The notes: a model not told the origin generated them from the sequence alone. A stretch of 64,000 bases of DNA from Gammaproteobacteria bacterium (GCA_029861845.1 JAOTYM010000006.1:2710-66709); one strand, 5' to 3'. Positions 1,568 through 17,598 are shown, counted from the first letter of the stretch. Numbers and translations are program-made.

Positions 1568-1608
1568 GTTTCTCACCCTTATTGTATTTACTGGGAAGGC
1601 AGCGGGGA

Positions 1609-1776
1609 TCAGCCCTGGATCCACGCACCGAGTCCCATGCCGCCGTGACCGCCCATCATGCGCATCTGGCCGCCGGACGTCTTGCCCTGTGCCTTGTGGG
1701 CATGAAGCGGTGCGACCAGCGTCATGCCGGTTAGTGTTATGGCGGCCCGGCGCGTGCGAGATATTGAGTCTTTCAT
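1609..1776 (-). CDS. Small secreted Met/Gly-rich peptide with a twin-arginine-like signal (55 aa)
   Basis: Internal Met of ORF 1609..1887: MKDSISRTRRAAITLTGMTLVAPLHAHKAQGKTSGGQMRMMGGHGGMGLGAWIQG. A strong SD (AAGGAGGAAACG) precedes the ATG. The signal-peptide DNA is about 83% identical (67/81 by manual alignment) to that of the gene at 8584..8973. Confidence 0.55.
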   Translation of the reverse strand: MKDSISRTRRAAITLTGMTLVAPLHAHKAQGKTSGGQMRMMGGHGGMGLGAWIQG

Positions 1777-1914
1777 CGTTTCCTCCTTTGAAGGGGAATG
1801 CCAGTACGCGTCCATCTTACGCAACTCCTCGGACGAGAGCGTGCTTTCTTGGACTTTCGGTTCAAATGTGCTTCCCATCATCCTCACGCGGAATCGTGTA
1901 TTGACGGCACGCTG

Positions 1915-3060
1915 TCAACGCGGTGTTCTGAGTCTCGGTCGTCTACCTACCTTGACCTCCACCGTCAAACGCTGAGTCTCGCGCATGAGCGTGATTGATG
2001 TAGTTTGACCGGGTGGCACCTTGGATATGCTATTGAGCAACCCGGAAGTGTCCGTCAACTCCTGGCCGTTTACAGTTAAGAGTACGTCTCCCGGATGGAT
2101 GCCGGCTTTGTCAGCCGGGCCGCCGCGCAGCACGCCGGCAATCAGTACGCCCTTGTCGACGTCAAGCCTCAGGGCAGCCGCTAATTCTGGGTTGAGGTCC
2201 TGCACATCGACCCCAATCCAACCGCGTACGACCGCGCCCTGCTCGATGATCTGCTGCATGACTTGTTTGGCGAGGTTGGCCGGTATGGCGAAGCCGATCC
2301 CCTGCGAGCCGCCGGTCTTGGAGAAGATTGCGGTGTTGATGCCGACGAGGTTACCGGCGGCGTCGATTAGTGCCCCGCCCGAGTTGCCAGGGTTAATCGC
2401 CGCGTCAGTTTGAATAAAGTTCTCGAACGTATTGATCCCCAGACCGCTGCGACCGGTTGCACTGACGATGCCCATCGTGACGGTTTGTCCCACCCCGAAG
2501 GGATTGCCGATGGCGAGCACAACGTCACCGATCTCTATTCGATCGGAGTCGGCGAACGTGATCGCGGAAATATCCTGGGCGTCCGCTTTCAACACCGCGA
2601 GATCTGTTTCCGGATCCGTCCCAACCACCTGCGCCGGTGCCGTGCGTCCGCCTGAGAGGACAACGGCGATCTGGTCAGCCGACTCGACCACGTGGTTATT
2701 GGTCAGGATATAGCCTTCGTTGCTGATGATCACGCCAGAGCCCAAGCTCGTGGCGCGCTCGGGCTCGGCCTCGAATTCATCGCCGAAGAATCGGCGAAAC
2801 AATGGGTCATCCATAAACGACGGTCGCTGCGCACGGACGTCCCGGCTCGTATAGATATTCACCACCGCGGGCATGGCCTTTTCGACCGCGCTCCTGAAGG
2901 TCGAGGCCAAAGTCGTCCCGATTGCCGGCGCCGATGCTTCCTTGACCGTGATCACTCGACCTCTCGCCGGTATCCAGTCCGGCCTGAAAAGCGTGATCAG
3001 CAAAAAAATAGCCAAAGCGACGGTGACCGTCTGAGCCAAAGTCAGCCATAACCTACGCAC
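1915..3060 (-). CDS. S1C serine endoprotease, DegS/AlgW-like (TM anchor, protease domain, one PDZ)
   Basis: 381 aa with a GTG start. Catalytic triad contexts are 'TNNHVV', 'DLAVLK' and 'GNSGGAL'. The C-terminal PDZ-like segment reads 'GVLIAGVLRGGPADKAGIHPGDVLLTVNGQEL'. Confidence 0.9.
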   Translation of the reverse strand: MRRLWLTLAQTVTVALAIFLLITLFRPDWIPARGRVITVKEASAPAIGTTLASTFRSAVEKAMPAVVNIYTSRDVRAQRPSFMDDPLFRRFFGDEFEAEPERATSLGSGVIISNEGYILTNNHVVESADQIAVVLSGGRTAPAQVVGTDPETDLAVLKADAQDISAITFADSDRIEIGDVVLAIGNPFGVGQTVTMGIVSATGRSGLGINTFENFIQTDAAINPGNSGGALIDAAGNLVGINTAIFSKTGGSQGIGFAIPANLAKQVMQQIIEQGAVVRGWIGVDVQDLNPELAAALRLDVDKGVLIAGVLRGGPADKAGIHPGDVLLTVNGQELTDTSGLLNSISKVPPGQTTSITLMRETQRLTVEVKVGRRPRLRTPR

Positions 3061-3099: not shown

Positions 3100-3756
3100 T
3101 TAACCAGGTTGATGTTGATTGACCACCCCCAAGCGCGGAAAGAACGCCGGTGTGTTGGCGGCGTAGCGGGCATATTCTTCGCCGAACTCGGCCATGACCT
3201 CTTGCTCTTCACGCCTTGCCAGGCGCACGTACATGTAAACCAGTACGGGAAACATCACCAGCGTCACGAGTGTCGGCCACTGCAACAGGAAGCCAAGCAT
3301 GATGAGGACAAATCCACCGTACTGGGGATGACGTAGCCGTGCGTAAGGGCCCGTCATCGCCAGGGTATGTGTACGCTGCGCTACGTAGAGCACCTTCCAG
3401 GAAGCAGCGAGCAGGATAAACCCGCCGAATATGGAAATGTTGCTCAGCAAGTGAAACGGACCGAAGTGCGGATTGGCACGCCAACCGAACACGATCTCCA
3501 ATAGATGGCCGGCATCATGCGACAAGAAGTCTACACCGGGGACACGGCTGGTAAGCCAACCCGAAAGTGTGTAGATGGTGAGCGGGAAGCCGTACATTTC
3601 GGTAAACAGCGCCAAGACAAACGCCGAAAAGGCGCCAAACGAGCGCCAGTCGCGGCGTGTGTGCGGCTTCGTGAAGCTGAACGCGAAGATGATGAAGATC
3701 AGCGAGTTAATTATGACCAACGGCCATAAGCCGTAGGCGGGTGCGGATTCACTCAC
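3100..3756 (-). CDS. Isoprenylcysteine carboxyl methyltransferase (ICMT/PEMT)-family membrane methyltransferase
   Basis: 218 aa, polytopic. The C-terminal 'RLRHPQYGGFVL...EEQEVMAEFGEEYARY' matches the RHPxY..G / E..L...FG..Y signature of this family. The GTG start overlaps the upstream stop (GTGA at 3753-3756). Confidence 0.75.
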   Translation of the reverse strand: MSESAPAYGLWPLVIINSLIFIIFAFSFTKPHTRRDWRSFGAFSAFVLALFTEMYGFPLTIYTLSGWLTSRVPGVDFLSHDAGHLLEIVFGWRANPHFGPFHLLSNISIFGGFILLAASWKVLYVAQRTHTLAMTGPYARLRHPQYGGFVLIMLGFLLQWPTLVTLVMFPVLVYMYVRLARREEQEVMAEFGEEYARYAANTPAFFPRLGVVNQHQPG

Positions 3757-3983
3757 GACTTGTCTCCATCTGAACCCTCACCGTCGCCGCCGTGACCGTG
3801 GCCACGATGCATGAATAAGTGCATGAATACACACCCGAGCAGTAATAAGTAGGGCAACGCGCCCAAGAGATGAGCCCGGTGCTCGGTCCAGAGGAAGAAG
3901 GCGGCGATAGCGACGAAGATCAGCAGGATGATGTTCGTCTTCGACAGCCGTCTGGTATTCGTATGCGATCGATGTTCTGTCAT
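3753..3983 (-). CDS. DUF2933-like small membrane protein with a His/Gly-rich tail
   Basis: Internal Met at 3983 (MTEHRSHTNTRRLSKTNIILLIFVAIAAFFLWTEHRAHLLG...HRGHGHGGDGEGSDGDKS), preceded by GGTGAGG. It has two TM helices. The family name is from memory. Confidence 0.65.
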   Translation of the reverse strand: MTEHRSHTNTRRLSKTNIILLIFVAIAAFFLWTEHRAHLLGALPYLLLLGCVFMHLFMHRGHGHGGDGEGSDGDKS

Positions 3984-4085
3984 GCTCGAAACCTCACCGT
4001 TATCTGACGGATCGCGCGTTGTGGTGGTTCGCACCCGCATCATGTCCCAACCACGTTGTTCTCGCGCGCTCTTATGGCTCTCACT

Positions 4086-4388
4086 TTATCTTTCCTTTGC
4101 TGGGCTCGCCCTAGTCGTCCACTGCCGCTGGGTACCCCTGCCAGCAAACACATTGTAGATCGGTACCCATATAAGCGCGACGTACCAGCCGTAGGCGTAG
4201 CTCTCCACAAGGCCGAGGAAAAAGCTCTGCCAAGTAAGCCACTCGAATCCCGGCAGTAGCTTGCGCCACGTCTCAAACATTGCGTACTCCGGAAACAGTA
4301 GATCAAAGCCGACACATAGGGTAAAGGTGATAGCCAAGAACAGGCTCGTCGCATGGCCAACCGCCACGAGCGAAAGGCCCTGTTTCAT
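4086..4388 (-). CDS. Small 3-TM membrane protein (resembles DUF5676 from memory)
   Basis: Met at 4388 (MKQGLSLVAVGHATSLFLAITFTLCVGFDLLF...YGWYVALIWVPIYNVF). Its ATG overlaps the YHS gene stop (ATGA at 4385-4388). The long Arg-rich upstream extension in the track ORF is out-of-frame overlap with the YHS gene. Confidence 0.55.
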   Translation of the reverse strand: MKQGLSLVAVGHATSLFLAITFTLCVGFDLLFPEYAMFETWRKLLPGFEWLTWQSFFLGLVESYAYGWYVALIWVPIYNVFAGRGTQRQWTTRASPAKER

Positions 4389-4660
4389 GATGCGCCTCCT
4401 TGCTTGCGCAGGAACTTTTCTGGTTCGGCCTCGAACTTGTCGAGACAGTTGCGCGAACAGAAACGGTAGAGCTCGCCGCCATGCATCTTGCCGTAACCCT
4501 GCTCGGGGTCGACATTCATGCCGCATACGGGATCGACGTGCTTCGCGCTGGCATCGCCGTGGCCGCCATGTCCGCCGTGGACCATGTGTGCGCCGCAGCC
4601 AAAACGCATCATCAGGTAAAAGGCCCCGGCAAAAAGCAGTAGCGATACTAAACCTTCCAT
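4385..4660 (-). CDS. YHS/TRASH-domain metal-binding protein with TM anchor and His-rich segment
   Basis: MEGLVSLLLFAGAFYLMMRFGCGAHMVHGGHGGHGDASAKHVDPVCGMNVDP...YRFCSRNCLDKF. The 'DPVCGM..V' ... 'FCS..C..KF' pattern is the YHS/TRASH pattern. It is the first gene after MerR-type promoter B. Confidence 0.7.
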   Translation of the reverse strand: MEGLVSLLLFAGAFYLMMRFGCGAHMVHGGHGGHGDASAKHVDPVCGMNVDPEQGYGKMHGGELYRFCSRNCLDKFEAEPEKFLRKQGGAS

Positions 4661-4783
4661 AACAGCTCTCCGACGCCCTCTCGGACGCAGTAACAATTAT
4701 CGTCACGCGCTCGCTTCAACTCAAAAGCGGGGGCTACTCTTCCAGATCTGCCCCGTCTGTTGCACAGCACGGGCGCATGTTCC

Positions 4784-4815
4784 ATGTTACAACCTGTGCG
4801 TCACTAACAAGTCAA
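4784..4815 (-). promoter_or_regulatory. MerR-type promoter/operator B (upstream of the YHS operon)
   Basis: Minus strand reads TTGACT-TGTTAGTGACGCACAGGTTG-TAACAT. It has a -35, a 20-nt spacer containing the dyad ACTTGT-N9-ACAGGT (4792..4812), and a -10. The geometry is the same as sites A, C and D. Confidence 0.7.
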
Positions 4816-4882
4816 CACTCGATCGACGTGACCGTTGATATGGATCAAGAAGAGACGACTCAGTGGGACAACAGAGGAGTAC

Positions 4883-7345
4883 TTACAGCGGCACCCCGCG
4901 CAGCCGCAAGGCATTGGTAATCACCGATACTGAACTAAGACTCATCGCCGCCGCTGCGATCATGGGGGAAAGCAATAACCCGAAAAACGGGTAGAGCACG
5001 CCGGCGGCGACCGGGACGCCGAGCGAGTTGTAAATGAATGCGAAGAACAAGTTCTGCCGAATATTGCGCATGGTCGCACGACTCAAGCGCCGTGCGCGCA
5101 CGATGCCACGTAGATCGCCCTTGACGAGCGTGACGCCGGCGCTTTCCATCGCGACGTCGGTACCGGTGCCCATCGCGATGCCCACATGCGACTGGGCCAG
5201 TGCCGGCGCATCATTGATGCCATCACCGGCCATGGCGACCGTGCGTCCCTCAGATTGAAGTTTCTTCACGATCGCGGCTTTCTGGTCCGGCAGCACTTCG
5301 GCCTCGACGCGATCGATACCAAGCCTGGACGCGACCGCCTCGGCGGTCGTGCGGCTGTCACCAGTCAGCATCACGACCTGGACACCTTCTTTATGCAGGT
5401 CCCGGATGGCCTCCGGTGTGGAATCCTTGATCGGATCGGCCACACCAATCAGCCCGGCGGCCTGGCCGTCGATGGCTACAAACATGACTGTCTGCCCTTC
5501 CCCACGGCCGGCCTCCGCGATTTTTGGCAAATCGGCCGGATCGATGCGCAGGCTTTCCAGCAATTTGACATTACCCAGCGCCACGCGTCGCCCCTCGACC
5601 TTGCCGGTCACACCCTTGCCGGTAACGGACTCAAAATTGTCGGTCGGTGACAGGGTAACCTCCCTGTCCTGTGCGCCGCGCACGATCGCTTCGGCCAGCG
5701 GGTGTTCGCTGCCGCGTTCCAGGCTGGCGCCCAGGCCCAGAATGTCATGTTCTTGAAAGCCGTTCACGGTCACGATCGACACCAGCGAGGGTTTCCCCTC
5801 GGTCAGGGTGCCGGTCTTGTCCACGACCAGCGTATCTACCTTGCGCAGGATTTCCAGTGCCTCGGCATTCTTGATCAATACCCCCATCATGGCGCCCTTG
5901 CCGGTGCCGACCATGATCGACATGGGGGTGGCTAGCCCCAGCGCGCAGGGACAGGCAATAATCAGTACCGCCACGGCGTTGATCACCGCATAGGCCAAGG
6001 CTGGTGCCGGTCCCCAGTTCCACCAGACGAAGAAGGTGATGATGGCAATCACGACCACAGCCGGTACAAAGTAACTGGCTACCACGTCCACCAGCTTCTG
6101 GATCGGTGCACGCGAGCGCTGTGCCTCGGCCACCATCTGCACGATCTGTGACAGCAGCGTATCTGCACCGACCCGTTCAGCGCGCATCAGCAGGCTGCCG
6201 GTACCATTGACGGTCGCGCCGATCAGCCGTTCACCCGCAGTTTTTTCGACGGGAATGGGCTCACCAGTCACCATGGATTCGTCGACCGAACTACTGCCGT
6301 CGAGTACTGCGCCATCCACAGGGACCTTTTCCCCCGGCCGCACCCGCAGGGTATCCCCCGGTTTGACCTGTTCCAGGGGGATATCTTCTTCGGTGCCATT
6401 ATCCCGGACGATACGCGCGGTGTTGGGTGCCAACCCCAACAACATTTTGATGGCGGCATTGGTGCGGCTGCGCGCGCGCAGCTCCAAAACCTGACCAAGC
6501 AGCACCAGTGCGGTGATGACGGCAGCCGCCTCAAAGTACACAGGTATAACTCCCATCTCGTTCTGCACCGACGCTGGAAAAATACCAGGGAACGTGGTTC
6601 CGATCACACTATAGGTCCAGGCAATACCAACCCCTATTCCAATCAGGGTGAACATATTAAGGTGGCGCGAGACCACCGATTGCCAACCGCGCACGAAAAA
6701 CGGCCACCCCCCCCATAAGACGACCGGCGTCGCCAACAGCAATTCGAACCACTGGCGCGAGCGTGGATGAATGATCTCTGCGACGGTCTCGGGCCAGAAC
6801 TCGGCCACCATAGCGCTGAAGAACACCGGGATGGCGAGGATGGCACTGACCCAGAAGCGCTGCGACATATCATCGAGTTCACTGGTGTCCTCTTCGACCT
6901 CTACCGTGCGCGGCTCCAGGGCCATGCCGCATTTCGGACACGCCCCCGGTTTGTCGCTCACCACCTCGGGGTGCATAGGGCATGTGTATTCCGTCTTGGT
7001 CGCGGTCACCGGAACGCCCATCGGCTCCAACGCCATGCCGCACTTGGGACAGCTGCCCGGCCCCTGTTGCTCCACCTCGGGATCCATGGGGCAGGTATAC
7101 ATCCCTCCCTGTGCTGATGAGCCGCTGTCGGCCGGTGCCTCGAGATCCGGGGTCCCTAGATAGTTATCCGGCGCCGCGCGAAATTTGTGCAGGCAGTGTT
7201 GGCTACAGAATCGGTACGTTGTAGCGGCATGAGAGTGTTGGTGCGGAGAATCCTTGGATACATCCATACCGCACACGAGATCCTTTTCGATCGCCTCGTC
7301 GACATGCTGGCCCGATACTTTCTTCAACTTATGCTTGGGTTTCAT
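4883..7345 (-). CDS. copA: Cu(I)/Ag(I)-translocating P1B-1-type ATPase
   Basis: Motifs present: 'DKTGTLT', '[10 protein letters not shown]' (CPC), 'FIYNSLGVP' (YN), '[12 protein letters not shown]' (MxxSS), 'GDGINDAP'. The N-terminus has a YHS motif plus two 'YTCPMxPEV..[13 protein letters not shown]' repeats. The track ORF starts at TTG 7405, but that lies 2 nt from the predicted -10 (7407..7412), so I prefer ATG 7345 (MKPKHKLKK...). Confidence 0.93.
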
Positions 7346-7406
7346 CGCATTGTGCTCTTTGGTCGCCTGATGCGGCGTTTGATCATTCGGGTGACTCTGC
7401 GTCAAC

Positions 7407-7438
7407 AGTATAAAACCTGTACCCTGCTAACAGGTCAA
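7407..7438 (-). promoter_or_regulatory. MerR-type promoter/operator A (upstream of copA)
   Basis: Minus strand reads TTGACC-TGTTAGCAGGGTACAGGTTT-TATACT. The dyad ACCTGT-N9-ACAGGT at 7415..7435 is perfect. The 20-nt spacer (19 if the -10 is read as TTATAC) is typical of MerR/CueR/ZntR-activated promoters. Confidence 0.8.
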
Positions 7439-7666
7439 ACTATTGCCCTTACCAGCCGCAGCAATACTAGTTATTCACATCTATTCTACGACGCTTTCTG
7501 TGTGCTTTGCATCGCGTCGGCCTCCGTCGAGAGCCCCAGTGAGTGGCCAAAATAGGTCGGCGGATGCCATCGGGCTGCAGCTTCAAAAGATCGCCTAACG
7601 CGCACAACGGAGAACGGGGCCAAACGCGTCTTTCAACTCTCCTCTAGCCGCCTCCGACTGGGTGAC

Positions 7667-8020
7667 TTAGTGCGGCCGGTCTATGCTGCGTAGTAGCTGC
7701 ACCCTCAGTGTTAGCCCATCGACGCTCAGGATTTTTACCCGGCCGCCTTTGCGCAACCTATCAGTGGACTCAGCGTTCCAGATTTCGCCGTGGACCCGCA
7801 CACGAGCGATACGTCCTCGCGCCTCTCTGACCTCGCCCAAACTTCGCAGCATCTCTTCGGAACCCGTCTGCACGGGACGGCGCATGGCCCGCACCGTGTA
7901 GAAATAAACCACAACAGAAAGCACGATGATGACCGTGTACACCGGCACCGCTATTGACATCGGCCACAACCAGAACACTGGGAGCCCCAATACCGGCATC
8001 ATCAGAATGAGATGGCACAT
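7667..8020 (-). CDS. NfeD-family membrane protein (C-terminal OB-fold type)
   Basis: 117 aa with two N-terminal TM helices. The tail 'GRIARVRVHGEIWNAES...GGRVKILSVDGLTLRVQ' resembles the NfeD C-terminal domain. Confidence 0.7.
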   Translation of the reverse strand: MCHLILMMPVLGLPVFWLWPMSIAVPVYTVIIVLSVVVYFYTVRAMRRPVQTGSEEMLRSLGEVREARGRIARVRVHGEIWNAESTDRLRKGGRVKILSVDGLTLRVQLLRSIDRPH

Positions 8021-8064
8021 GATTACACCGACGTATCACCGGGCGAAAATATCCGGTGAGAAAC

Positions 8065-8304
8065 TCAGTCAGACAGTAGTTTTTTCCGCTCCTCGAATTC
8101 TTCTTTATCGATCTCGCCGCGGGCGAAGCGCTTGCTAAGAATATCCAGTGGCGTTTTGCCAGCCGACGGCACGCCGGCTCCACCGGCTGACCCACTCCCA
8201 ATCCAACGAACAAGGAGCACAATCACCAAGATAATGCCACCCCAGAACAGGACCATCATCAATGAACCAAAGAGCATGTGGCCCCAACCCCAATCGTATG
8301 CCAA
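8065..8304 (-). CDS. SHOCT-domain membrane protein
   Basis: 79 aa with a TM helix (LFGSLMMVLFWGGIILVIVLLV). The C-terminal 'LDILSKRFARGEIDKEEFEERKKLL' is the SHOCT motif. The start is TTG at 8304, with an alternative ATG 27 nt downstream. Confidence 0.7.
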   Translation of the reverse strand: MAYDWGWGHMLFGSLMMVLFWGGIILVIVLLVRWIGSGSAGGAGVPSAGKTPLDILSKRFARGEIDKEEFEERKKLLSD

Positions 8305-8583
8305 CCAGGACGCTCCGCGTAACCTTGTGCTTGCACTTGGAACGACGCGAGAGCGAAGATCACCATTATCAGTGCGGACCTAATCCAGCTTGTCATTTCG
8401 ATCTCCTTCAAGATTTCATCTATCGGACAATCGCAGCACCCCTTAGTCCCTATGCTGACCCGGCACGACTTAGCAAACGCTACCAGCGGCAAAGGGTCAA
8501 GGGGTTCAACAAGACTAGTTGTCCTTCGCCGGAAGGCCAGCCACGGTCTAATTATGCCCACTCGAAGGATGCCAGGCGATGCC

Positions 8584-8973
8584 TTACTGCTTCATCATTT
8601 CGTCCATGCGTTTACGCATCTGCTCCATCTGATCCTGCGTGTCGGCGTCCATCATCATGCCCGACATCTTGTCCATCATAGCGCCCATTTCCTGCATGCG
8701 CTCGGCCATCTGTTTTTGCATGTCGGGGCTCATGCCTCCCTGCATCATCCGCTCGGACATCTTTTCCATCTGACCGGCCATGTCATGCATCATGCCGGAA
8801 GACTGCTGGGCGCCGGGGCCCATACCGCCTTTGCCACCCATCATCCCTGAACCCATCTGGCCGCCGGACCCCATGCCTTGTTCCTTTCCCGTGTGTGCAT
8901 AAAGCGGCGCGGCGAGCGCCATGCCGATCACTGCTATGGCAGCCCGGCGCGTGCGAGACATTGACTGTTTCAT
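8584..8973 (-). CDS. Methionine-rich secreted protein with Tat-like signal (putative periplasmic Cu(I)/Ag(I) binder)
   Basis: MKQSMSRTRRAAIAVIGMALAAPLYAHTGKEQ..., then a mature part with 28 Met in about 103 residues (my count) in M-x-x-M/MM motifs. A strong SD (GAAGGAGCAAAAG) precedes the ATG. MerR-type promoter C lies upstream. Confidence 0.75.
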   Translation of the reverse strand: MKQSMSRTRRAAIAVIGMALAAPLYAHTGKEQGMGSGGQMGSGMMGGKGGMGPGAQQSSGMMHDMAGQMEKMSERMMQGGMSPDMQKQMAERMQEMGAMMDKMSGMMMDADTQDQMEQMRKRMDEMMKQ

Positions 8974-9124
8974 CTTTTGCTCCTTCGATGGGGATTATCC
9001 CCAGTTCGGTTACATTAACGTTTCTATGCAAAACGCGCCCGTTCGGCCGCAACGCTGCGCGCTGAGATCCTTTCGCATGGTCGCAGCCGGGATGTAGTGG
9101 CGTTTTATGTGTGCAACATCATGA

Positions 9125-9156
9125 ATGCTACAACCTGTGCGCAACTATCAGGTCAA
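9125..9156 (-). promoter_or_regulatory. MerR-type promoter/operator C (upstream of the Met-rich / SHOCT / NfeD genes)
   Basis: Minus strand reads TTGACC-TGATAGTTGCGCACAGGTTG-TAGCAT. The dyad is at 9133..9153 with one mismatch. The geometry is identical to sites A, B and D. Confidence 0.7.
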
Positions 9157-9462
9157 GCCCCGTGCTGCCCCTTCACTTGACTAAAATCAATAAGGCGCAG
9201 ATTGAGTGCAATTCCCGAAAGAAGTGGATGGTAGGCGTTACCCGAACCAGTTGATTGTCAGAACATTCGTTATGTGTGTTACTTAGACATGACGATGGCT
9301 AGTGCTGGGGTTTGTTTCGGGCCAGAAGGCAAGCTAGCACGATCAGTCGCAATTCCTTCTACACTATAGCCGACCTATGGTTTTGTTGATCTATCTCAAC
9401 GCAAAGTTGGGGTGTATATGTTCTGTTGTGAGGTTACCGAACTTTGCGCTACGGAGGCTATT

Positions 9463-9675
9463 ATGAACGGCCGACAGTTTCTTGGTCTAGTTATTCTGCT
9501 GCTAAGCGTGGGTCTTTTCAGTGGATGCCAGAAGGTCAACGAACCATGGGATACGACTGGTTATTTCGAAGCGGAACGAAGCCGGACACCGGAGCAACAA
9601 AAAGCTCTAAGGCACCGCTTAGCGTCCGCCGTAGAACTCAGCCAGGAGCAGCCTTGGTTGCACGCGCAGCATTGA
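9463..9675 (+). CDS. Small putative lipoprotein (70 aa)
   Basis: Internal Met of ORF 9412..9675: MNGRQFLGLVILLLSVGLFSGCQKV... has a signal peptide and a lipobox-like 'FSGC'. A strong SD (ACGGAGGCTATT) precedes the ATG. Confidence 0.5.
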   Translation: MNGRQFLGLVILLLSVGLFSGCQKVNEPWDTTGYFEAERSRTPEQQKALRHRLASAVELSQEQPWLHAQH

Positions 9676-9957
9676 TTGACGCTATAGGTCCTTATTACTC
9701 CAGACGCAGCGGCCGCAAACGGGCTAGTTGACTCACAAAACCGCATCGCGGGCGCGATTTGTTGCGCGTCATTTTCTACTCGCTCAACCGATAACGGGCC
9801 AGAGCGATCCCGTGGAGTGTCCCTTAATGATACAGACCAAAGCGGTAAGGAAGCAGTAAGCTATATTGCAGATCTGAAGTTCCGAAAACAATAAGATTGT
9901 AGCTTTATAGAACCCCCGTAATAAGGTTCGCCCACCATTGATCTAACTCGTTGGCAT

Positions 9958-10392
9958 TTATTGCATACATCTCATATGTTGAGGCCCTTGACAAGCAATA
10001 ATCCTTGCGCTCCATAGGCTCTTTATATACGCAACGATATCGTAAACCTCTTTTTCAGAAATAACTTCCTTGAAGGCAGGCATGCGCTTCGTTCTGCGCA
10101 GACCTTCGAAAATCATGTTTGCTAGCTGTTCATCAGTATGGTGCCAGGCATGCGATGTTTCATTTAAAGGCATGGCCGTAAAGTATCCTGGCTTACGTAT
10201 ACTCCACGGAATCGGCGTTTCCCCTACCCCATCTTTCTGATGACAAACTTGACAATGCTTCTCATAAAGCCCTTTACCAAGCACGACGGCACCGGGGTCC
10301 GGCGTTTTCCCCGTTTCAGCACCAGCGATTCCACTGAAAATAATGAGCGCTAAAAAGTTAACGACCAAAATATTTCTTCGTATTGTAATCAT
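9958..10392 (-). CDS. Monoheme c-type cytochrome (periplasmic)
   Basis: Signal peptide and a single 'CQVCH' heme motif. It shares 'PLNETSHAWHHTD' and 'DIVAYIKSLW' with the cytochrome paralogues at 17070, 17599 and 22390. Confidence 0.8.
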   Translation of the reverse strand: MITIRRNILVVNFLALIIFSGIAGAETGKTPDPGAVVLGKGLYEKHCQVCHQKDGVGETPIPWSIRKPGYFTAMPLNETSHAWHHTDEQLANMIFEGLRRTKRMPAFKEVISEKEVYDIVAYIKSLWSARIIACQGPQHMRCMQ

Positions 10393-10450
10393 CTCAACAT
10401 CCCGAAATATCTTAACATCGCAAGTATAGCGCTCAAGCGGTATCAGCGTT

Positions 10451-10861
10451 TCACTCGACCCCAGCCGCGCGTTGTTTCTGGCGCACGTAGGCTATGATAT
10501 GACCCGCATCCTCTGGCGTGAGCCTGTCGATGGGCGTCATGTTTCCGAAGTTCCAATGGTGCTGCCGCACACCGTGTCTGACCGCGAGGTGAAAAGACAG
10601 ATCAGCATGGTGGCCAGGCCGGTAAATCTTGTGTACCAGTGGTGGTCCTTCGCGTGTTCCCCGGACGCCCTCGCCATGACAGCGGGCGCAGTTGGCCTGA
10701 AATAGATCCCCGCCTCGTTTCGCGTCGGCGACGAAGTTGGGACTCGGCAGACGGAGATTGGCGCGCATCTGTTCCGGTTCAGGCCGTTCGCAGCTGGCCA
10801 AGATCGGTAACGTAATGAAGGCCATAGCAAGCCATGGCGATATGTTCTTTCTTGCGTTCAC
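10451..10861 (-). CDS. Monoheme c-type cytochrome, probable lipoprotein
   Basis: Heme motif 'CARCHG'. The track ORF extends to 10921. I prefer GTG 10861, which gives (M)NARKNISPWLAMAFITLPILASC, a lipoprotein-type signal, and avoids overlap with the Rieske reading frame. Confidence 0.75.
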   Translation of the reverse strand: MNARKNISPWLAMAFITLPILASCERPEPEQMRANLRLPSPNFVADAKRGGDLFQANCARCHGEGVRGTREGPPLVHKIYRPGHHADLSFHLAVRHGVRQHHWNFGNMTPIDRLTPEDAGHIIAYVRQKQRAAGVE

Positions 10862-10910
10862 CTTGTATCTTTGTGGCCTGAGATGGGTTTGCGGTGGCGT
10901 TGGACTGTGC

Positions 10911-11502
10911 TCAGATCTCATCGGCGCCGATTCCTATCACTGTGTCTTTCATGTATCGATGAGTAGGCACGACTAAATTGGTTGGTGCCGGGACATTCTT
11001 GAATACGCGCCCCGCCAAGTCAAACTTAGAGCCATGACACGGGCAGAAATAGCCGCCGGGCCAATCCCTGATCGACACCCGCGCTTGCGCCGGAAGCAAG
11101 TTTGGCCAGAGGCACGCACCCGAGATGCGTACAGATGCCGACGACCACGAGCACTTCCGGCCGGATCGATCGGTAAAGGTTCTTGGCATACGACGGCTGC
11201 TGACTTTCCACCTCCGAGCTCGGGTCGACCAGCAGTGGCGTGTTGCGCTCGAGCTGTTCGAGCATCGCCGGTGTGCGCCGCAAGATCCATACCGGTATGC
11301 CCCGCCATTCAACGGTAAGCATCTGCGCCGCTTCGAGCTTGCTGATATCGACATTAACGGAACCACCCGCGGCCAATGCCCGCGCACTGGGTTTCATACT
11401 TAAGATAAAGGGCGTCGAGCTAAGGGCAGCGCCGATGCCACCCAGAACGGTGGTGATCGTCAGCAGCCACCGTTTTTTTGCATCGACAGGGCCACTAGCC
11501 AC
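10911..11502 (-). pseudogene. petA: Rieske [2Fe-2S] protein, PetA-like, interrupted by a +1/-1 frameshift near 11090..11105
   Basis: ORF 11026..11502 carries the PetA-like N-terminus through cluster box I, 'VVGICTHLGCVP'. Box II 'GGYFCPCHGSKFDLAGRVFKNVPAPTNLVVP' is in a different frame (ORF 10911..11387). Removing one nucleotide near 11097 joins them with normal box spacing. Confidence 0.8.
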
Positions 11503-11525
11503 GATACCACCTACTAGTTGCGTTA

Positions 11526-12119
11526 TCAGGCCTTGAGATCTTTCGACGCCGGCCGCCTGGGTCGGCCCAGTTGTGGTGCGATGCCACAGAATCCCTGGGG
11601 CTCTACCCCCAGTGCGGCGTTGAACTTGCTGGAAAGATTCTGGAACGCGATGACACCGGTAAGCTCTATGATGGCATCATCATCGAAGTGCCGGCGAAGC
11701 TGTTCAAAGTGCTTCGCGGTTGGTTGACCGTCTGAATAGGTGATCATCTCGGTGTAGGCCAATGCAATTTTTTCGCGCTCGCTAAACAGCGGGCTTGCCT
11801 CGAAATTGGCAAGCTCTGCCAACTTGGCCGGATCAACACCCCGCTTAAGCACGGTCGCAGAATTGATATCGACGCAGAACGGACACCAGTTGATCTGGGA
11901 CACCCGTATGGTGACCAGCGATCGCAGCGGCGGTTCGATCGGCGAAGAGCGGCGATCCAAAGCTCCATAAAGCAGCGCTAGGCTGATGAATACTTTGGGC
12001 GTACGGCCCCAGAGACGAGCAGGCTCGAGCACCGCACCATAACGACGTCTCTGGTTCCAGAAGAACAGGCGCACATACCACGGGAAATGGTGCTTTGGTG
12101 GCGTAGTGATAGCAGCCAT
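11526..12119 (-). CDS. Carboxymuconolactone decarboxylase / AhpD-like family protein
   Basis: Internal Met at 12119 (MAAITTPPKHHFPWYVRLFF...) avoids overlap with the upstream gene. The 'INWCPFCVDIN' CxxC core is typical of AhpD-like proteins. Confidence 0.7.
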   Translation of the reverse strand: MAAITTPPKHHFPWYVRLFFWNQRRRYGAVLEPARLWGRTPKVFISLALLYGALDRRSSPIEPPLRSLVTIRVSQINWCPFCVDINSATVLKRGVDPAKLAELANFEASPLFSEREKIALAYTEMITYSDGQPTAKHFEQLRRHFDDDAIIELTGVIAFQNLSSKFNAALGVEPQGFCGIAPQLGRPRRPASKDLKA

Positions 12120-12141
12120 CACTGGTGTCGCGCGACGCCGA

Positions 12142-13206
12142 CTAACGACCCGCCACCGCCATCTGGTGCCCCTCACCACGGACGGGAATCTTGCCCACTA
12201 CCGCTAAGCGTTTCTGGTCCACTACCCAGATCAGCGGCTCCTTGCGGCTCGAAACGTACACCTTACCCGTACCCGGGATTGCGGCAACATGATAAGACGC
12301 CGGGCTGAGATCGAGACTGCGAGTCCGACCGCTAACAAGATCAATCTCGATTAGCTTGTTGTCCTTCTTGACCGCAACGAGCAGCTTCTTGCCGTCATCG
12401 GACAAGTCAACGCCATGGGGATCGTTGCCGACGCTATACGTCTTTACCACCTTGCCCTGGTCGCGCGAGATCACCGAAACGGTACCATCACCGATATTGT
12501 TTACGTAAATCGTAAGCTCGTCCGCCGATAGCACCATATGTTCGGGCGCCGGTCCCGCCAAGATATTGCGGGTCACGATCCAGTGATCCGTATCAATCTC
12601 ACTGATCGTATTGTTGCCAGCGTTGCTGACATAGATGCGTTTGCCGTCTTTCGTGACTACCGCGTAGTTGGGCACTGGGCCGGTTGGCACTACCTTGGCG
12701 ACTTTGTAATTCGAAAGATCGATCGCGCTGATCCCGCCGGCCGTAGTATGTGTCGAGATCGCGTAACGTCCATCCGGTGTAACCAGATTGTGATGAACGG
12801 CTCCTTTCACGTCGACACGGCGAACTACGCGTCTGTCTTGCGTCTCAACAATAGCAACATGGCTCATCCCCACGCCCGATTGCGAAGCGGCCGCAGTCGG
12901 CATGTTGTGATGCAGGCTGTGCTCCTCCTCGGACATGCCAGCTGGCTTCGGTGGCAGCGCGGCTTGATCCGGGCTCACCTCCCGATTGCTGCCCGCGACC
13001 ACGTACTTGCCATCGGGCGTCGCGGCGAGGCCGTGCGGATTGACGATATCGCCGACCGTATCTATGACCTTGTCATCTGCCGCATCCACGATGACGATTT
13101 CGTTTGCCGTACCTAAGGGGATATATACTGTGGGTGCGGCTGACGTGACCGAGGCCATACCGACGGTAGCAGCGCTAACTAGAAGAATACCTACCAGCTT
13201 GTTCAA
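12142..13206 (-). CDS. Secreted YVTN-type seven-bladed beta-propeller protein
   Basis: Signal peptide (MNKLVGILLVSAATVGMASVTSA). Seven repeats of the pattern 'V.VID....KV...I.VG..P.G...S.DGK..YV'. A Met/His-rich insertion follows blade 1. Confidence 0.8.
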   Translation of the reverse strand: MNKLVGILLVSAATVGMASVTSAAPTVYIPLGTANEIVIVDAADDKVIDTVGDIVNPHGLAATPDGKYVVAGSNREVSPDQAALPPKPAGMSEEEHSLHHNMPTAAASQSGVGMSHVAIVETQDRRVVRRVDVKGAVHHNLVTPDGRYAISTHTTAGGISAIDLSNYKVAKVVPTGPVPNYAVVTKDGKRIYVSNAGNNTISEIDTDHWIVTRNILAGPAPEHMVLSADELTIYVNNIGDGTVSVISRDQGKVVKTYSVGNDPHGVDLSDDGKKLLVAVKKDNKLIEIDLVSGRTRSLDLSPASYHVAAIPGTGKVYVSSRKEPLIWVVDQKRLAVVGKIPVRGEGHQMAVAGR

Positions 13207-13317
13207 GTTCCTCTCCTTTCTTAAGGTGCGTTCTCTTCAAGGACTGCGTTCTTTAGTCTTAGCGGACGATAAGGTTATACCCCGCTTCGGTCTGGTCTAC
13301 GGATCACTAACCGCCCA

Positions 13318-13983
13318 TCAGCCGCCCTGGCCCATGCCCGGAGACATCATTCCGTGTCCGCCCCTGCCATGGCCGCGCTTCAACTGTTTGAGCTCTTGGC
13401 GCTGTTCCTTGGTTAGCACCGCGTCAACACGATTGTGGGTATCAATCTTGCTCTCAATCATCTGCCGTCTGAGATTAAAGATATTCCCATACACCGCACC
13501 GATTCTTTTCGCATCTGGTTTATCGGCGGCGAAGAGCTCACGCAGCTTGCTGGATTCGTCCATGATCTTGCCCATGGTGTCCCAGTTCGTCCTGCGTAGC
13601 TGATCCTGAAGCTTGTGCATGCTGGCACGCTGTTCTTTTGTAAGGTCAAGCATTTGTATGCGGCCCATGCCCATGCCGCCCATCATTCCAGGACTATCCA
13701 TCATCCCCATCATGCCTGGTCCCATACCCATCATGCCCATGTGACCCATGCCACCCATATGGCCCGCCATCCCGGATTCGCCCATCATGCCCTTGTGACC
13801 CATGCCACCCATATGGCCCGCCATCCCGGATTCGCCCATCATGCCCATGTGGCCCATGCCGTAGCCGGGGGTACCACCTCGCATCATCGGACCGCCGCCA
13901 TGGGCTAGCGCGACTGACGCCCCAATGCCAACGACAGCCGCGATCAATACACCCATCATCAAACCAGTTACAGTTCTATTCAT
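13318..13983 (-). CDS. Spy/CpxP/ZraP-family periplasmic protein with a Met/His/Gly-rich N-terminal extension
   Basis: Signal peptide, then 'GMGHMGMMGESGMAGHMGGMGH...' repeats. Two LTxxQ motifs follow ('LDLTKEQRASM', 'AVLTKEQRQEL'), characteristic of the family. A strong SD (GGAAGGAGAT) is present. Confidence 0.8.
   Translation of the reverse strand: MNRTVTGLMMGVLIAAVVGIGASVALAHGGGPMMRGGTPGYGMGHMGMMGESGMAGHMGGMGHKGMMGESGMAGHMGGMGHMGMMGMGPGMMGMMDSPGMMGGMGMGRIQMLDLTKEQRASMHKLQDQLRRTNWDTMGKIMDESSKLRELFAADKPDAKRIGAVYGNIFNLRRQMIESKIDTHNRVDAVLTKEQRQELKQLKRGHGRGGHGMMSPGMGQGG
13741..13848. repeat. Tandem 54-bp direct duplication inside the Spy/CpxP-like gene
   Basis: 13741..13794 and 13795..13848 are identical except for one base at the unit end (tt vs at). 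They encode the duplicated 'GMMGESGMAGHMGGMGH(K/M)' block. Confidence 0.9.
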
Positions 13984-14153
13984 CGAATATCTCCTTCCTT
14001 ACGCAAAGCTATTGGTTAATGACAAAAAAATACATTTCTCGCAAACCCACAATCTTAGTTTTCCAACTGTCAGCAAGGTTCATCGAGTTTCTTGATGCAG
14101 ATCAAGGCTCGTGCATGTATTCCCGTTCTGGTGCGTCGCCCGCGGCGTCTCGC

Positions 14154-14600
14154 TCATACACGGATTGGCCTGACGGAGAACCAACGCATTGTCATGACCG
14201 TGAGACTCGGGACCACCAGCCACTGCAGTAGCGGTGACAGGCCAATACCGCCAACCAGTGGCATCGCCGCGGCATAAGACCAGGCGCCAAGCTGGTAGAC
14301 GTTGTGCCACTCGCTGAATACGGTATAGGCAAGCCCCGCGGTAACCATTAGTAGCCCGCCCAACCACGGCGTCTGCAGCGGCCAATCCAGGCGTTTGAGC
14401 ACTGTAGCCGTTCCCAAGAACACGCTGGTGGCAATCAGTACATCGCCCACCGTGCAGTGAAACACGTACGCTACGATTCGCTGTCTGCTGTCGTCACTCC
14501 ACAGGCCATACAACGGCAGATGCGCAAACTCCCACACGAGGTGGAACACGAAAGCGAGACTTGCCCACCTCGCCATCCATTTCACCGCTATTATCATCAT
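14154..14600 (-). CDS. Polytopic membrane protein of unknown function (first gene after promoter D)
   Basis: 148 aa with 4-5 hydrophobic helices (e.g. WASLAFVFHLVWEFAHLPLYGLW, GGLLMVTAGLAYTVF). I recognise no family. The start codon lies only about 14 nt downstream of the predicted transcription start. Confidence 0.6.
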   Translation of the reverse strand: MMIIAVKWMARWASLAFVFHLVWEFAHLPLYGLWSDDSRQRIVAYVFHCTVGDVLIATSVFLGTATVLKRLDWPLQTPWLGGLLMVTAGLAYTVFSEWHNVYQLGAWSYAAAMPLVGGIGLSPLLQWLVVPSLTVMTMRWFSVRPIRV

Positions 14601-14620
14601 TTTCGTCGCTGGTTAGATAC

Positions 14621-14652
14621 AGTCTAAGACCTGCGTGTAGCTTACAGGTCAA
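14621..14652 (-). promoter_or_regulatory. MerR-type promoter/operator D (its -35 overlaps the merR-family stop codon)
   Basis: Minus strand reads TTGACC-TGTAAGCTACACGCAGGTCT-TAGACT. The dyad is at 14629..14649 with one mismatch. The -35 hexamer (14647..14652) contains the TGA stop (14649..14651) of the regulator gene. Confidence 0.7.
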
Positions 14653-15071
14653 GCGTCATAGCGACGGATGCCTGTTGACTCGATGAGGTGACATATCGAT
14701 TCCCTATCGGGCACGCGGTCGGGCATCTTATCCCACTGCCTTAAGGCGTCTTCCATACGGTTCTGCAACTGCAACAGTTCCTCCAGCTTCTGCCGGTTCT
14801 CCTCGACGTGCCGCTGCAAGATATCCCTGACTCTTCGACACGGGGACTTGCCCTGGGCGCTGGTGTCGAGAATCTGTGCGATCTCCTCCAGCGTACAGCC
14901 GAGGCTCTGCGCCTGACGGATGAAACTAAGCCGCGATATGTCAGAACGTGAAAATAGCTTATAGCCATTGTCCGGATGGCGCGCCGGGCTGAGTAACCCG
15001 ATCCGGCTGTAATAGCGGACCACATGCGGTGCCACTCGCCCTTGCCTTGAAAGTTCACTTACCGTCATCAT
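14649..15071 (-). CDS. MerR-family metal-responsive transcriptional regulator
   Basis: MMTVSELSRQGRVAPHVVRYYSRIGLLSPARHPDNGYKLFS... is the MerR N-terminal wHTH, followed by a coiled-coil helix. GGAGG lies 7 nt upstream of ATG 15071. It is the only MerR-family gene in the window. Confidence 0.88.
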   Translation of the reverse strand: MMTVSELSRQGRVAPHVVRYYSRIGLLSPARHPDNGYKLFSRSDISRLSFIRQAQSLGCTLEEIAQILDTSAQGKSPCRRVRDILQRHVEENRQKLEELLQLQNRMEDALRQWDKMPDRVPDRESICHLIESTGIRRYDA

Positions 15072-15206
15072 TTTGCTGCCTCCTAAAAGATATAGTTGCG
15101 CTGTGCGCCCACGTCGCACGAACTCGCTAACAAGAGAACGGCCCGGGCGCGTGCCATGGCTTCGCCTAGCGACTCGCCGCTAGGTTTCCGCCAAAGTTGA
15201 ACGGCC

Positions 15207-15647
15207 TCAGATAAGAAGCTGCTTGAAACGCAGATACAGCGGGAGCGATGAGGTTGGAACGTGATAGGCTTGCGGCCACTCCCGAATTGGTTCGGCAATC
15301 TGCTGGTCCCAGACTAACGCGGCGGCCACGAGGCTGTCCGGTTGCGGGGAGCGATACTTGAGAACAACCGGCGCCGCTTTCATAAGATCGTGACGCATAC
15401 CGGTCCAGTAGCAACAATAAGACAACCCGTCTTCTGATGCTGCCTCGCCGACGATTTCTCGAGCGTAATCGGCGGACGTCAAACCAACCCCCACCTGCGG
15501 CTGAGCCAATCCGGCGGCAAACAAGTCGCGGCAGGGCTGCAGCGTCACCAGCAACAACAGCGAGAGCGAACCAACTAATAGCCAGGATGTATATCGGCGC
15601 CGACACGTTGGTTGCCAAGCTAATACTTTTCGGCGGCTGCTATTCAT
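15207..15647 (-). CDS. Hypothetical protein with N-terminal TM/signal segment
   Basis: 146 aa with a hydrophobic segment (WLLVGSLSLLLLVTL). I recognise no family. I chose it over the overlapping alternative frame 15166..15618 because of the TM segment and tight spacing to the flanking genes. Weak call. Confidence 0.4.
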   Translation of the reverse strand: MNSSRRKVLAWQPTCRRRYTSWLLVGSLSLLLLVTLQPCRDLFAAGLAQPQVGVGLTSADYAREIVGEAASEDGLSYCCYWTGMRHDLMKAAPVVLKYRSPQPDSLVAAALVWDQQIAEPIREWPQAYHVPTSSLPLYLRFKQLLI

Positions 15648-15662
15648 CGAGCGTAACGAGCT

Positions 15663-16052
15663 TTAATTGAGGCTATCACGTACACGTTCTAGACGCTTGC
15701 GCACTTCCATACCTAATTCGGCGATCTCCTCGCGATCGACCAAGCCTAACACCGCTGCAGGATCCATAAATGCGACGGTTATCTTACCGTCTTCCTCTTC
15801 CCTGACCACAACATTGCAAGGCAATAGCAATCCGATATCAGGATCGGCGGTCAGGGCCTTATGCGCAAGCGACGGATTGCAGGCTCCGAGGATTCGGTAT
15901 GGCTGTCCTTCGATATCCAGTTTTTCTTTCATGGTCTTCTGCACATCGATATCGGTGAGTACACCGAAGCCCTCATCTTTCAGTGCCTCGGTCACTCGTA
16001 TAACAGCTTTATCGAAGCTTTCCGTCAGTTGAATATTAAATCCATACATCAT
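15663..16052 (-). CDS. DUF302 domain protein
   Basis: 129 aa. '[17 protein letters not shown]...YRILGACNP' and 'LLPCNVVV' match the DUF302 pattern as I recall it. Confidence 0.8.
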
Positions 16053-16217
16053 TCTCTCCCAGCGGGACTAAGCGCGTTCAGTTTGTTTTGACCTTGCAAA
16101 ATTTATATCTATCTCGCCAGCTTAGACATTGATGTAGGTCAAGGTTCCGTGTTTCGAATCAAGCCCTCACCAAATCAACGTAGGGGCTTACAAGAATCCA
16201 CGCTTCGAAATATCTAC

Positions 16218-16985
16218 CTAATTAAGCTGGCTGGGTATCGGTTTGCTCATGCCCAAGCGCCCCACCCCGGGTAGCTTGATAGCCGGGCGCAAGACATCGA
16301 TGCCGAAACTCATACCCAGCAGATTGAGCTCGAGTCCTTCCTGGCGGGCAGCGAGGACACCGAGCATACCGTACCACGACAGCTGGATCCCGGTGCCGCT
16401 CGGCGCACTCTCCACCAAGCTGCCGTTAGTCAGGAAATCCTTGCCGATGGCGGTGGTTGGCAGATCTAGGGCGAGCTCGGGCACCTCACGCCCGACATGG
16501 GCGGTGAAGGTATTGCTGTTGGGGCCGGGCCAGAGGACGTACTCCCACTCGTAGGGGTAGTTACGTACCGCCTGTTCGATGCGCGGGATAGCGCGCGTAG
16601 CGGCGTCGCCACGCAGCTCGGCGATAACCACTGGCGCATTGCCAAACCAGGAACGATCCGGGGTGTCGGGCGCTGAGATGACCACCGGTAGATTGTGCCA
16701 CTTGCGCCACCCCACGACCTGGTGCACGGTGTAGCCGTCAGCCCCTTCCGGTTTGGTTGCGATCCAGGTATGTACGGCGAAAATACCACGCCAGTTTATG
16801 GCGCGCGCCGCATAAGCCTGTACCACTGCCTCACGAGTCGTGTCTGGGTCGGGTGCAATACCAGTCGGGGAACGGTCGGCCGTGCGCCAATCCTGTCCCA
16901 GGTTGATCTTGCCACAAGCAACCATCAACAACGGGCCTGCCAACAGCACGCCCAAAAACATACCGATACGTTTGAACAATTTCAT
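16218..16985 (-). CDS. DUF3750-like lipoprotein
   Basis: Internal Met at 16985 (MKLFKRIGMFLGVLLAGPLLMVACGK...) has a lipobox. 'FAVHTWIATKPEGADGYTVHQVVGW' and 'WPGPNSNTF' resemble DUF3750 (from memory). Confidence 0.7.
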   Translation of the reverse strand: MKLFKRIGMFLGVLLAGPLLMVACGKINLGQDWRTADRSPTGIAPDPDTTREAVVQAYAARAINWRGIFAVHTWIATKPEGADGYTVHQVVGWRKWHNLPVVISAPDTPDRSWFGNAPVVIAELRGDAATRAIPRIEQAVRNYPYEWEYVLWPGPNSNTFTAHVGREVPELALDLPTTAIGKDFLTNGSLVESAPSGTGIQLSWYGMLGVLAARQEGLELNLLGMSFGIDVLRPAIKLPGVGRLGMSKPIPSQLN

Positions 16986-16986
16986 A

Positions 16987-17051
16987 GTGCTGGCCGAATA
17001 ATACACGATTTGCTAATACGCTCCCTTATCGTGAGTAATGGCGGCCAGCAC
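16987..17051. repeat. Perfect 10-bp inverted repeat (GTGCTGGCCG ... CGGCCAGCAC) with a 45-nt loop between two cistrons
   Basis: The arms lie at 16987..16996 and 17042..17051. The repeat sits between the cytochrome c stop (17070) and the DUF3750 start codon (16985). Confidence 0.85.
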
Positions 17052-17069
17052 TGCCAGCCTTACCAAATC

Positions 17070-17582: not shown

Positions 17583-17598
17583 ATACAGCTCCTCATTG

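Follow-up and report, generated by a model that had tools for sequence, protein, structure and literature searches.

The MerR-type metal sensors are a textbook case of a coordination site that sets metal selectivity, and they have been widely re-engineered as biosensors. The promoters that they control have a canonical spacer of 19-20 bp (Chem Rev 2024, PMC11672702). Among the known classes, CueR and GolS combine two loop cysteines with a serine at helix alpha5, ZntR combines a CCx3Hx4C loop with an alpha5 cysteine, and CadR, PbrR and MerR have two loop cysteines and an alpha5 cysteine; CoaR, MliR and NimR are unconventional members of the family (PMC11672702). Related merR-copA-cupredoxin-DUF2933-ICMT clusters have been described in Alteromonas, and the HOT1A3 regulator WP_012516906.1 is encoded among them (PMC8478169). 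Quantitative polymerase chain reaction showed that copper at 100 uM to 1 mM induced merR and copA from clusters of this kind in A. macleodii CUKW and KCC02; the regulators were named putative CueR (cd04787), with neither an operator nor a distinct ligand set described (PMC8478169). This is the only paper that we found on the gene cluster, and no published description of the operator or ligand set reported below was found, although work in subscription journals may hold more on either. Here we describe a 64,000-nucleotide stretch of DNA from a Gammaproteobacteria bacterium (JAOTYM010000006.1:2710-66709; "the window" throughout), in which four copies of one MerR-type promoter/operator and a single MerR-family gene appear to constitute a genuine multi-operon regulon, responding most likely to copper or silver, under a variant MerR-family metal sensor.

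The four sites are on the minus strand. Site A (7438..7407), before the copper-ATPase gene, reads TTGACC-TGTTAGCAGGGTACAGGTTT-TATACT; site B (4815..4784) reads TTGACT-TGTTAGTGACGCACAGGTTG-TAACAT; site C (9156..9125) reads TTGACC-TGATAGTTGCGCACAGGTTG-TAGCAT; and site D (14652..14621) reads TTGACC-TGTAAGCTACACGCAGGTCT-TAGACT. The latter three are the putative promoter/operators of the operons designated B, C and D below. All four are intergenic, and each is oriented toward the minus-strand genes 3' of it. They have in common a -35 element TTGACY, a 20-nt spacer enclosing the dyad ACCTGT-N9-ACAGGT, and a -10 element TAnnnT. The site sequences and coordinates given in the original prediction proved exact when the minus strand was re-read. 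The dyad that it named is also present, but across relatives of the regulator it is longer, ACCTGTGTG-N3-CACACAGGT, with a 9-3-9 architecture of 21 bp.

A position weight matrix (PWM) was trained on 53 sites that adjoin related regulator genes, all of them from other genomes and none from the window. It scores sites A, B, C and D at 34.8, 32.3, 33.3 and 36.3 bits, respectively, whereas the next-best position in the 64 kb scores 4.9 bits, and the top scores of shuffled windows have a mean of 5.7 +/- 3.3 and a maximum of 17.5 bits. Given scores of 32-36 bits at the four sites, at most 4.9 bits elsewhere and at most 17.5 bits in shuffles, the observation is real. This matrix supersedes a test with a degenerate pattern derived from the four sites themselves, which matches only those four in the window against 0.01 expected and is circular. 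The bare dyad, allowing up to two mismatches, has five matches in the window against 1.45 expected.

When the four site regions are aligned, identity is confined to a core of about 32 bp and the flanks do not align. Because the flanks are unrelated, an origin of the sites by duplication of a segment or from a mobile repeat was rejected. Ordinary sigma-70 promoters were rejected as well: a scan with spacers of 16-18 bp misses all four sites, which is what 20-bp spacers would lead one to expect, and gives seven promoter-like matches in the window against 11.2 in shuffles. The PWM finds no further operator above 5 bits either upstream of the regulator gene or before the DUF302/DUF3750/cytochrome c/DUF3379 cluster that lies upstream of it. 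The CueR box, ACCTTCC-N7-GGAAGGT with up to three mismatches, has one unrelated match in the window, at 52961, against 1.7 expected; canonical CueR control was rejected because the window has neither a CueR box nor a second MerR gene.

The operator accompanies the regulator in other genomes. A set of 80 loci encoding relatives of the regulator, at 45-81% identity, was searched with a PWM threshold of at least 18 bits, and 117 sites were detected in 74 of these loci, against 0-1 in shuffled versions. Nearly all (111 of the 117) are on the strand of the regulator. The operator adjoins the regulator gene on the same strand in 55 loci, within 160 bp upstream of it in 27 and directly after it in 28. 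The family consensus is TTGACCTGTGTGyAGCACACAGGTTnTAnnCT, in which the 9-3-9 dyad again spans 21 bp, and a -10 element of the form TAnnnT is found at 20-bp spacing in 105 of 121 family sites and at 19-bp spacing in six. Where the operator is upstream, its -10 element is mostly 25-53 bp ahead of the regulator start, so that the regulator gene is predicted to head an operon that its own product activates. Where it is 3' of the regulator, the TGA stop codon of the regulator gene forms exactly bases 2-4 of the TTGACC hexamer in 21 of the 28 loci. The window has this arrangement (the TGA at 14651..14649 constitutes bases 2-4 of the site D -35 hexamer), and it is also seen in loci L001, L003-L005, L009 and L012-L014, among others. 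Read-through from the regulator gene would run straight into site D, the predicted operator of the regulator itself, and might meet a roadblock there or give basal expression of the operon.

Multi-site clusters, reaching five sites in 20 kb, are present in several relatives, and the multi-operon layout is therefore not peculiar to the window. The co-occurrence of motif and regulator, with a fixed geometry across Gamma-, Beta- and Zetaproteobacteria, provides strong comparative evidence that proteins of this subfamily bind the motif. The original prediction that MerR-type promoters are bound by the protein encoded at 14649..15071 thus gains support from the relatives' loci, as far as sequence comparison can provide it.

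The gene most commonly found behind the relatives' sites encodes an orthologue of the window ATPase (60-81% identity), in the arrangement site-merR-copA or merR-site-copA. Among 42 full-length ATPases behind sites, 33 have the complete Cu(I) P1B-1 signature, five are CPC-type and lack one or both C-terminal motifs (some of these sequences are truncated at locus ends), four are of the CPH (CopB-type) form, and none is of the Zn/Cd type. Nearly all of the orthologues have two CxMxP-type HMBD motifs. Proteins of the ICMT-like, YHS, DUF5676, DUF2933, Met-rich LTXXQ and YncE-like propeller families are recurrent behind these sites, as are AhpD/CMD, Rieske, cytochrome c, SHOCT and NfeD proteins. The recurrence of these families across genomes supports the earlier suggestion of a regulon broader than the copA and cueO regulon of CueR.

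Sites in the relatives often also precede genes that are not in the window, including those at L003 (7707), L005 (14677) and L014 (13142), and the second sites of L021, L022, L025 and L048. On reading of the sequences, these genes encode an HD-domain protein whose N-terminus has the Cys-rich motif CxxC...CCEGC and a cyclopropane-fatty-acid-synthase-like methyltransferase of about 440 amino acids; further genes encode porin-like, FAD-oxidoreductase-like and Met-rich repeat proteins.

The regulator gene (14649..15071, minus strand) encodes a protein of 140 amino acids (MMTVSEL...RYDA). It had been described as the sole MerR-family gene in the window, and the search for open reading frames (ORFs) finds no other. 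The likely start is the ATG at 15071, preceded by an AGGAGG Shine-Dalgarno sequence. Just upstream of the latter, at about 15103..15119 on the minus strand, the 135-bp gap before the gene contains a GC-rich inverted repeat, GTGCG-ACGTGGG-CGCAC; no standard sigma-70 promoter was detected in this gap. The protein matches the Pfam models MerR_1 (62.7 bits) and MerR-DNA-bind (55.4 bits), and is 100% identical to a protein in a metagenome-assembled genome (MAG) from "Gammaproteobacteria bacterium". About 200 homologues were found, mostly in MAGs of Acidiferrobacterales, Sulfuricaulis, Sulfurifustis, Chromatiales, Sedimenticola, Methylophaga and Zetaproteobacteria.

This protein scores below every NCBIfam equivalog cut-off, including those for MerR (79.2 against 150.9 bits), ZntR (72.6 against 143), CadR-PbrR (68.3 against 151.5) and both CueR models (TIGR02044, 65.1 against 147.4; NF007590, 40 against 244), and for this reason is not, by sequence classification, an orthologue of CueR, ZntR, CadR or MerR. 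In a profile search of the PDB it was aligned over residues 1 to about 110 only, with B. megaterium MerR, CadR, Tn501 MerR, PbrR and then CueR as the best matches, and the C-terminal part did not align to any solved protein. An AF2 model (predicted local distance difference test score, pLDDT, 90.6) contains alpha5 at residues 78-114, a 13-residue loop at 115-127 and a short C-terminal helix at 128-132. The protein thus has the layout of a MerR-family activator: a winged helix-turn-helix at the N-terminus, a long dimerisation helix (alpha5) and an effector loop towards the C-terminus. Foldseek searches with this model match CadR (TM-score 0.73) and PbrR (0.74), ranked above CueR; MerR and CueR were also matched.

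Two cysteines stand out in the subfamily. Cys78, in a conserved SPC motif, aligns with C79 of B. megaterium MerR, C82 of Tn501 MerR and C77 of CadR, and occupies the position of Ser77 in CueR. It is present in at least 110 of 120 homologues and Cys127 in 119 of 120, always 49 residues apart, and Cys127 is followed by a histidine in 104 of 120. No further cysteine lies between Cys78 and Cys127 in 96 of the 109 homologues in which both motifs could be located. In the model, alpha5 begins with Cys78, and Cys127/His128 are found at the junction of the loop and the short C-terminal helix, a topology shared with the CueR and MerR metal sites. No class with an alpha5 cysteine and a single loop cysteine (and histidine) is found among the MerR classes of the 2024 survey (PMC11672702).

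A comparison with CueR shows several points of likeness. Both are MerR-family proteins of the activator type, both are associated with a 21-bp dyad that has ACC...GGT ends and overlaps a -35 TTGACC in an over-long spacer, and both have a metal-binding loop after alpha5 and before a short C-terminal helix. The main target of both is a Cu(I) P1B-1 ATPase, for the window by position, as site A stands before an ATPase gene that is positive for TIGR01511. However, CueR has two loop cysteines (C112 and C120) that form a linear Cu(I) site, whereas the window regulator has one conserved loop cysteine (C127) in a longer loop of 13 residues; CueR has Ser77 at the N-terminus of alpha5, which excludes divalent ions, where the window regulator has Cys78. 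The half-site also differs, ACCTTCC with a 19-bp spacer in CueR and ACCTGTGTG with 20 bp in the window family, and the predicted window regulon, with four operons, is much larger. CadR, PbrR, MerR and ZntR are closer in sequence and fold, and the alpha5 cysteine of CadR and MerR aligns with Cys78, but all four have at least two loop cysteines (plus a histidine in ZntR), whereas the window family has one, usually followed by a histidine. Their targets are the zntA, cadA, pbr and mer genes, whereas those of the window family are copper-type ATPases and Met-rich proteins.

Copper and silver are favoured because the ATPase targets are all of the copper type, because Met-rich, YHS and HMBD proteins are abundant behind the sites, and because relatives have been linked experimentally to copper. 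Met-rich, YHS and HMBD proteins are typical binders of Cu(I) and Ag(I). Cu(I) is thus the most likely effector, with Ag(I) a probable second one. The experimental link is through Alteromonas: plasmid-borne homologues from A. macleodii HOT1A3 and A. stellipolaris are 41-44% identical to the window regulator and retain the alpha5 cysteine and a VCHLIE motif, and the operator is detected 77-103 bp upstream of their merR-copA at 26-28 bits. The Alteromonas and other marine gammaproteobacterial merR-copA clusters resemble the window in regulator subfamily, in operator and in their DUF2933 and ICMT genes. They differ in being a single autoregulated operon on plasmids or genomic islands, with a 19-bp spacer in the two cases inspected, whereas the version in the window is chromosomal, comprises four operons and leaves the regulator gene outside the activated units. 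The two Alteromonas plasmid promoters, in L081 (6924) and L083 (6898), have this 19-bp spacer (…CAGGTT-TAnnCT), as opposed to the 20 bp at 105 of 121 closer-relative sites, and the more distant branch of the subfamily may use this shorter spacer.

Several points weigh against a copper-responsive regulon of this extent. Under the classical rule, an alpha5 N-terminal cysteine marks divalent-metal sensors, with serine found in CueR and GolS (Chem Rev 2024, PMC11672702), and the nearest sequences and folds are those of CadR, PbrR and MerR rather than CueR. The Joint Genome Institute (JGI) automatic annotation labels many members of the subfamily as Zn(II)-responsive. In about 13% of homologues, the residue at position 128 is Y, V, R or Q instead of histidine. 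The comparison covered homologous clusters listed in the Alteromonas paper, other than those whose proteins were tested for copper induction (PMC8478169). In addition, the operon boundaries are predicted from gene spacing. Some of these observations would suit a regulator that acts at the same promoters and responds to a divalent soft metal (Zn, Cd, Pb or Hg) or broadly to thiophilic metals. Such a sensor would share the alpha5 N-terminal cysteine of MerR, ZntR, CadR and PbrR, which also supply the best NCBIfam, PDB and fold matches. The ZntR-controlled zntA promoter of E. coli has a 20-bp spacer, as do the window sites. We nevertheless consider a divalent effector unlikely, since the ATPases behind sites are all copper-type, be it P1B-1 or CPH, with no Zn/Cd type among them, Met-rich, YHS and HMBD proteins are plentiful in the regulon, copper induces related merR-copA clusters (PMC8478169), and the single loop cysteine contrasts with the two or more in all characterised divalent sensors.

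The same gene content also bears on the idea that Cys78 and Cys127 form a thiol redox switch of the NmlR type, responsive to oxidative, electrophile or envelope stress, with copper acting only indirectly. The regulon includes AhpD/CMD-like, Spy/CpxP-like and DegP-like proteins, and DsbC/G-like proteins occur in relatives; just two cysteines are conserved, and MerR proteins that sense cysteine oxidation exist (PMC11672702). However, the target found most often and conserved best is a Cu(I) exporter, frequently encoded in a merR-copA operon of just two genes, metal-binding proteins of the Met-rich, YHS and HMBD kinds predominate in the regulon, and copper induction has been reported for related clusters (PMC8478169), all of which makes a redox switch improbable. 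Finally, the binding of the motif by the regulator is predicted from sequence and the inspection covered 64 kb of the genome, so that another regulator encoded elsewhere, such as a canonical CueR, could bind the sites while the adjacent MerR gene is there by coincidence, or the sites could be a non-regulatory repeat. Both are very improbable: the motif travels with the regulator subfamily across Gamma-, Beta- and Zetaproteobacteria and plasmids, abuts the regulator gene in more than half of the loci (55 of 80), and is unlike the CueR box that the window lacks, and the four copies have unrelated flanks and are all in promoter position with a -35 and a -10 element.

The copper or silver regulon can be described as a single model, to which we assign a probability of about 0.7; we infer in it the binding, the activation, the effector, the ligands and the operon extents. 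At each of the four sigma-70 promoters, a dimer of the regulator would sit on the 21-bp dyad enclosed by the 20-bp spacer, with Cu(I) or Ag(I) as a bridge between Cys78 in one subunit and Cys127, possibly together with His128, in the other. As in MerR, CueR and ZntR, metal binding would untwist the DNA and align the -35 and -10 elements for transcription, with predicted starts about 7 nt past each -10 element, near 14614, 9118, 7400 and 4777. The four promoters would drive four tandem operons of about 18-19 genes, whose products would include the Cu(I)-exporting P1B-1 ATPase, the YHS, DUF5676, DUF2933 and ICMT-like proteins, Met-rich periplasmic proteins, SHOCT and NfeD proteins, and the propeller/AhpD-like/Rieske/cytochrome c set. 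An inter-subunit bis-thiolate or Cys2His site might suit Cu(I) chemically, by analogy with CsoR, which senses Cu(I) with a Cys2-His ligand set at a subunit interface. The resemblance to CsoR is a chemical one, in the types of residue proposed for the window regulator; CsoR has an unrelated four-helix-bundle fold and is a repressor that acts by derepression.

The promoter mechanism of MerR proteins and a copper ATPase as target, the theme of CueR, are known already. Four features appear to be new: the subfamily is large, uncharacterised and equipped with an operator of its own; its ligand pattern is outside the described classes and counter to the Ser/Cys rule of selectivity; the stop codon of the regulator is, in a conserved arrangement, part of the -35 hexamer of its target; and the predicted regulon is unusually broad, with respiratory-type proteins among its products. 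It is possible, at somewhat below even odds, that the subfamily represents a distinct and widespread class of MerR-family Cu(I)/Ag(I) sensors that bind metal through an inter-subunit Cys(alpha5)-Cys(loop)(-His) site and command a large envelope and respiratory copper-stress regulon, against that rule. If so, the accepted rule by which an alpha5 serine denotes a monovalent sensor and an alpha5 cysteine a divalent one would be broken, and sulfur- and iron-oxidising Proteobacteria and marine plasmids would have a copper regulon with Rieske, cytochrome c, AhpD-like, propeller and methyltransferase proteins. Since the subfamily appears to control copper export despite a "divalent" alpha5 cysteine and one loop cysteine, it offers a direct test of the selectivity rules for CueR, ZntR and MerR. 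The operator model TTGACCTGTGTG-N3-CACACAGGT-N2-TAnnnT may be used for regulon annotation in uncultured sulfur- and iron-oxidising bacteria and in marine copper-resistance plasmids and islands, and the predicted regulon would tie several families of unknown function (DUF5676, DUF2933, ICMT-like, SHOCT, NfeD, YncE-like and AhpD-like) to one metal response.

Site A is followed by the gene for an 820-amino-acid Cu(I)-type P1B-1 ATPase (4883..7345, minus strand). The protein scores 603 bits against the Cu-type NCBIfam model TIGR01511 (cut-off 397), and its translation contains the P1B-1 motifs CPC, NX6YNX4P and PX6MX2SS. According to Pfam, the N-terminus has one YHS (TRASH-like) domain and two HMBD (PF19335) domains, without a ferredoxin-like HMA domain. 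The start is likely the ATG at 7345, because the alternative TTG at 7405 is upstream of the predicted transcription start.

Operon B, behind site B, has a conserved core at 3100..4696 on the minus strand, consisting, by Pfam, of genes for a YHS-domain protein (4385..4696), a DUF5676 membrane protein (about 4086..4376), a DUF2933 protein (3753..4043) and an ICMT/PEMT-like methyltransferase (3100..3756). All four families recur behind sites in relatives. A likely distal part of the operon (971..3060, minus strand) is assigned by same-strand gaps of 39 bp or less only, and includes genes for a DegP/HtrA-like protease with a PDZ domain (1915..3060; Pfam), a 92-amino-acid ORF (1609..1887) and a LemA-family protein (971..1624; Pfam). 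None of these three families was found behind sites in the relatives' 80 loci, and it is by proximity only that the three genes are likely to belong to operon B.

Operon C (7667..8973, minus strand) has three genes, which encode a Met-rich secreted protein (8584..8973), a SHOCT-domain membrane protein (8065..8304) and an NfeD-like protein (7667..8020). A 100-amino-acid ORF at 8259..8561 on the same strand, with a signal-peptide-like internal segment, extends in a different frame over the beginning of the SHOCT gene. In L006, a homologue begins at the position that corresponds to the methionine of the SHOCT ORF itself, which suggests that the 100-amino-acid ORF may be spurious, or may encode a small separate peptide.

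Operon D (9958..14600, minus strand) has seven genes, its continuity being judged from short intergenic gaps. They encode a 148-amino-acid membrane protein (14154..14600), a Met/Gly/His-rich LTXXQ protein that is Spy/CpxP-like (13318..13983), a YncE-like beta-propeller (12142..13206), an AhpD/CMD-family protein (11526..12179), a Rieske protein (10911..11502) and two c-type cytochromes (10451..10921 and 9958..10392); the family assignments are from Pfam and NCBIfam. The Rieske gene is frameshifted near 11040..11066, between the cluster-binding motifs CTHLGC and CPCHGS, and alignments to intact homologues of about 198 amino acids span two frames of the window gene. It may be a pseudogene, or the frameshift may be an assembly error in the MAG.

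On gene spacing, these genes would constitute four transcription units with about 18-19 genes. The original prediction had placed copA, three operons of envelope proteins and a redox-protein operon under one sensor; the multi-operon layout stands, with four units instead, and with envelope and redox genes together in operon D.

A further same-strand cluster (15207..19508, minus strand) lies upstream of the regulator gene and encodes a 146-amino-acid ORF, DUF302 and DUF3750 proteins, two c-type cytochromes, a 117-amino-acid ORF and a DUF3379 protein. The rest of the window contains chromosomal housekeeping genes, including tkt, gap, pgk, pyk, fba, purC, dinB and pilJ. A mobile metal-resistance island was rejected on account of these surrounding genes, and the parts of the window that were inspected showed no transposase genes. 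A plus-strand ORF at 9412..9675, which lies between operons D and C and has a lipoprotein-like signal (LLSVGLFSGC), is the only gene on the opposite strand within the cluster, and it is followed at 9745..9770 by terminator-like hairpins on both strands.

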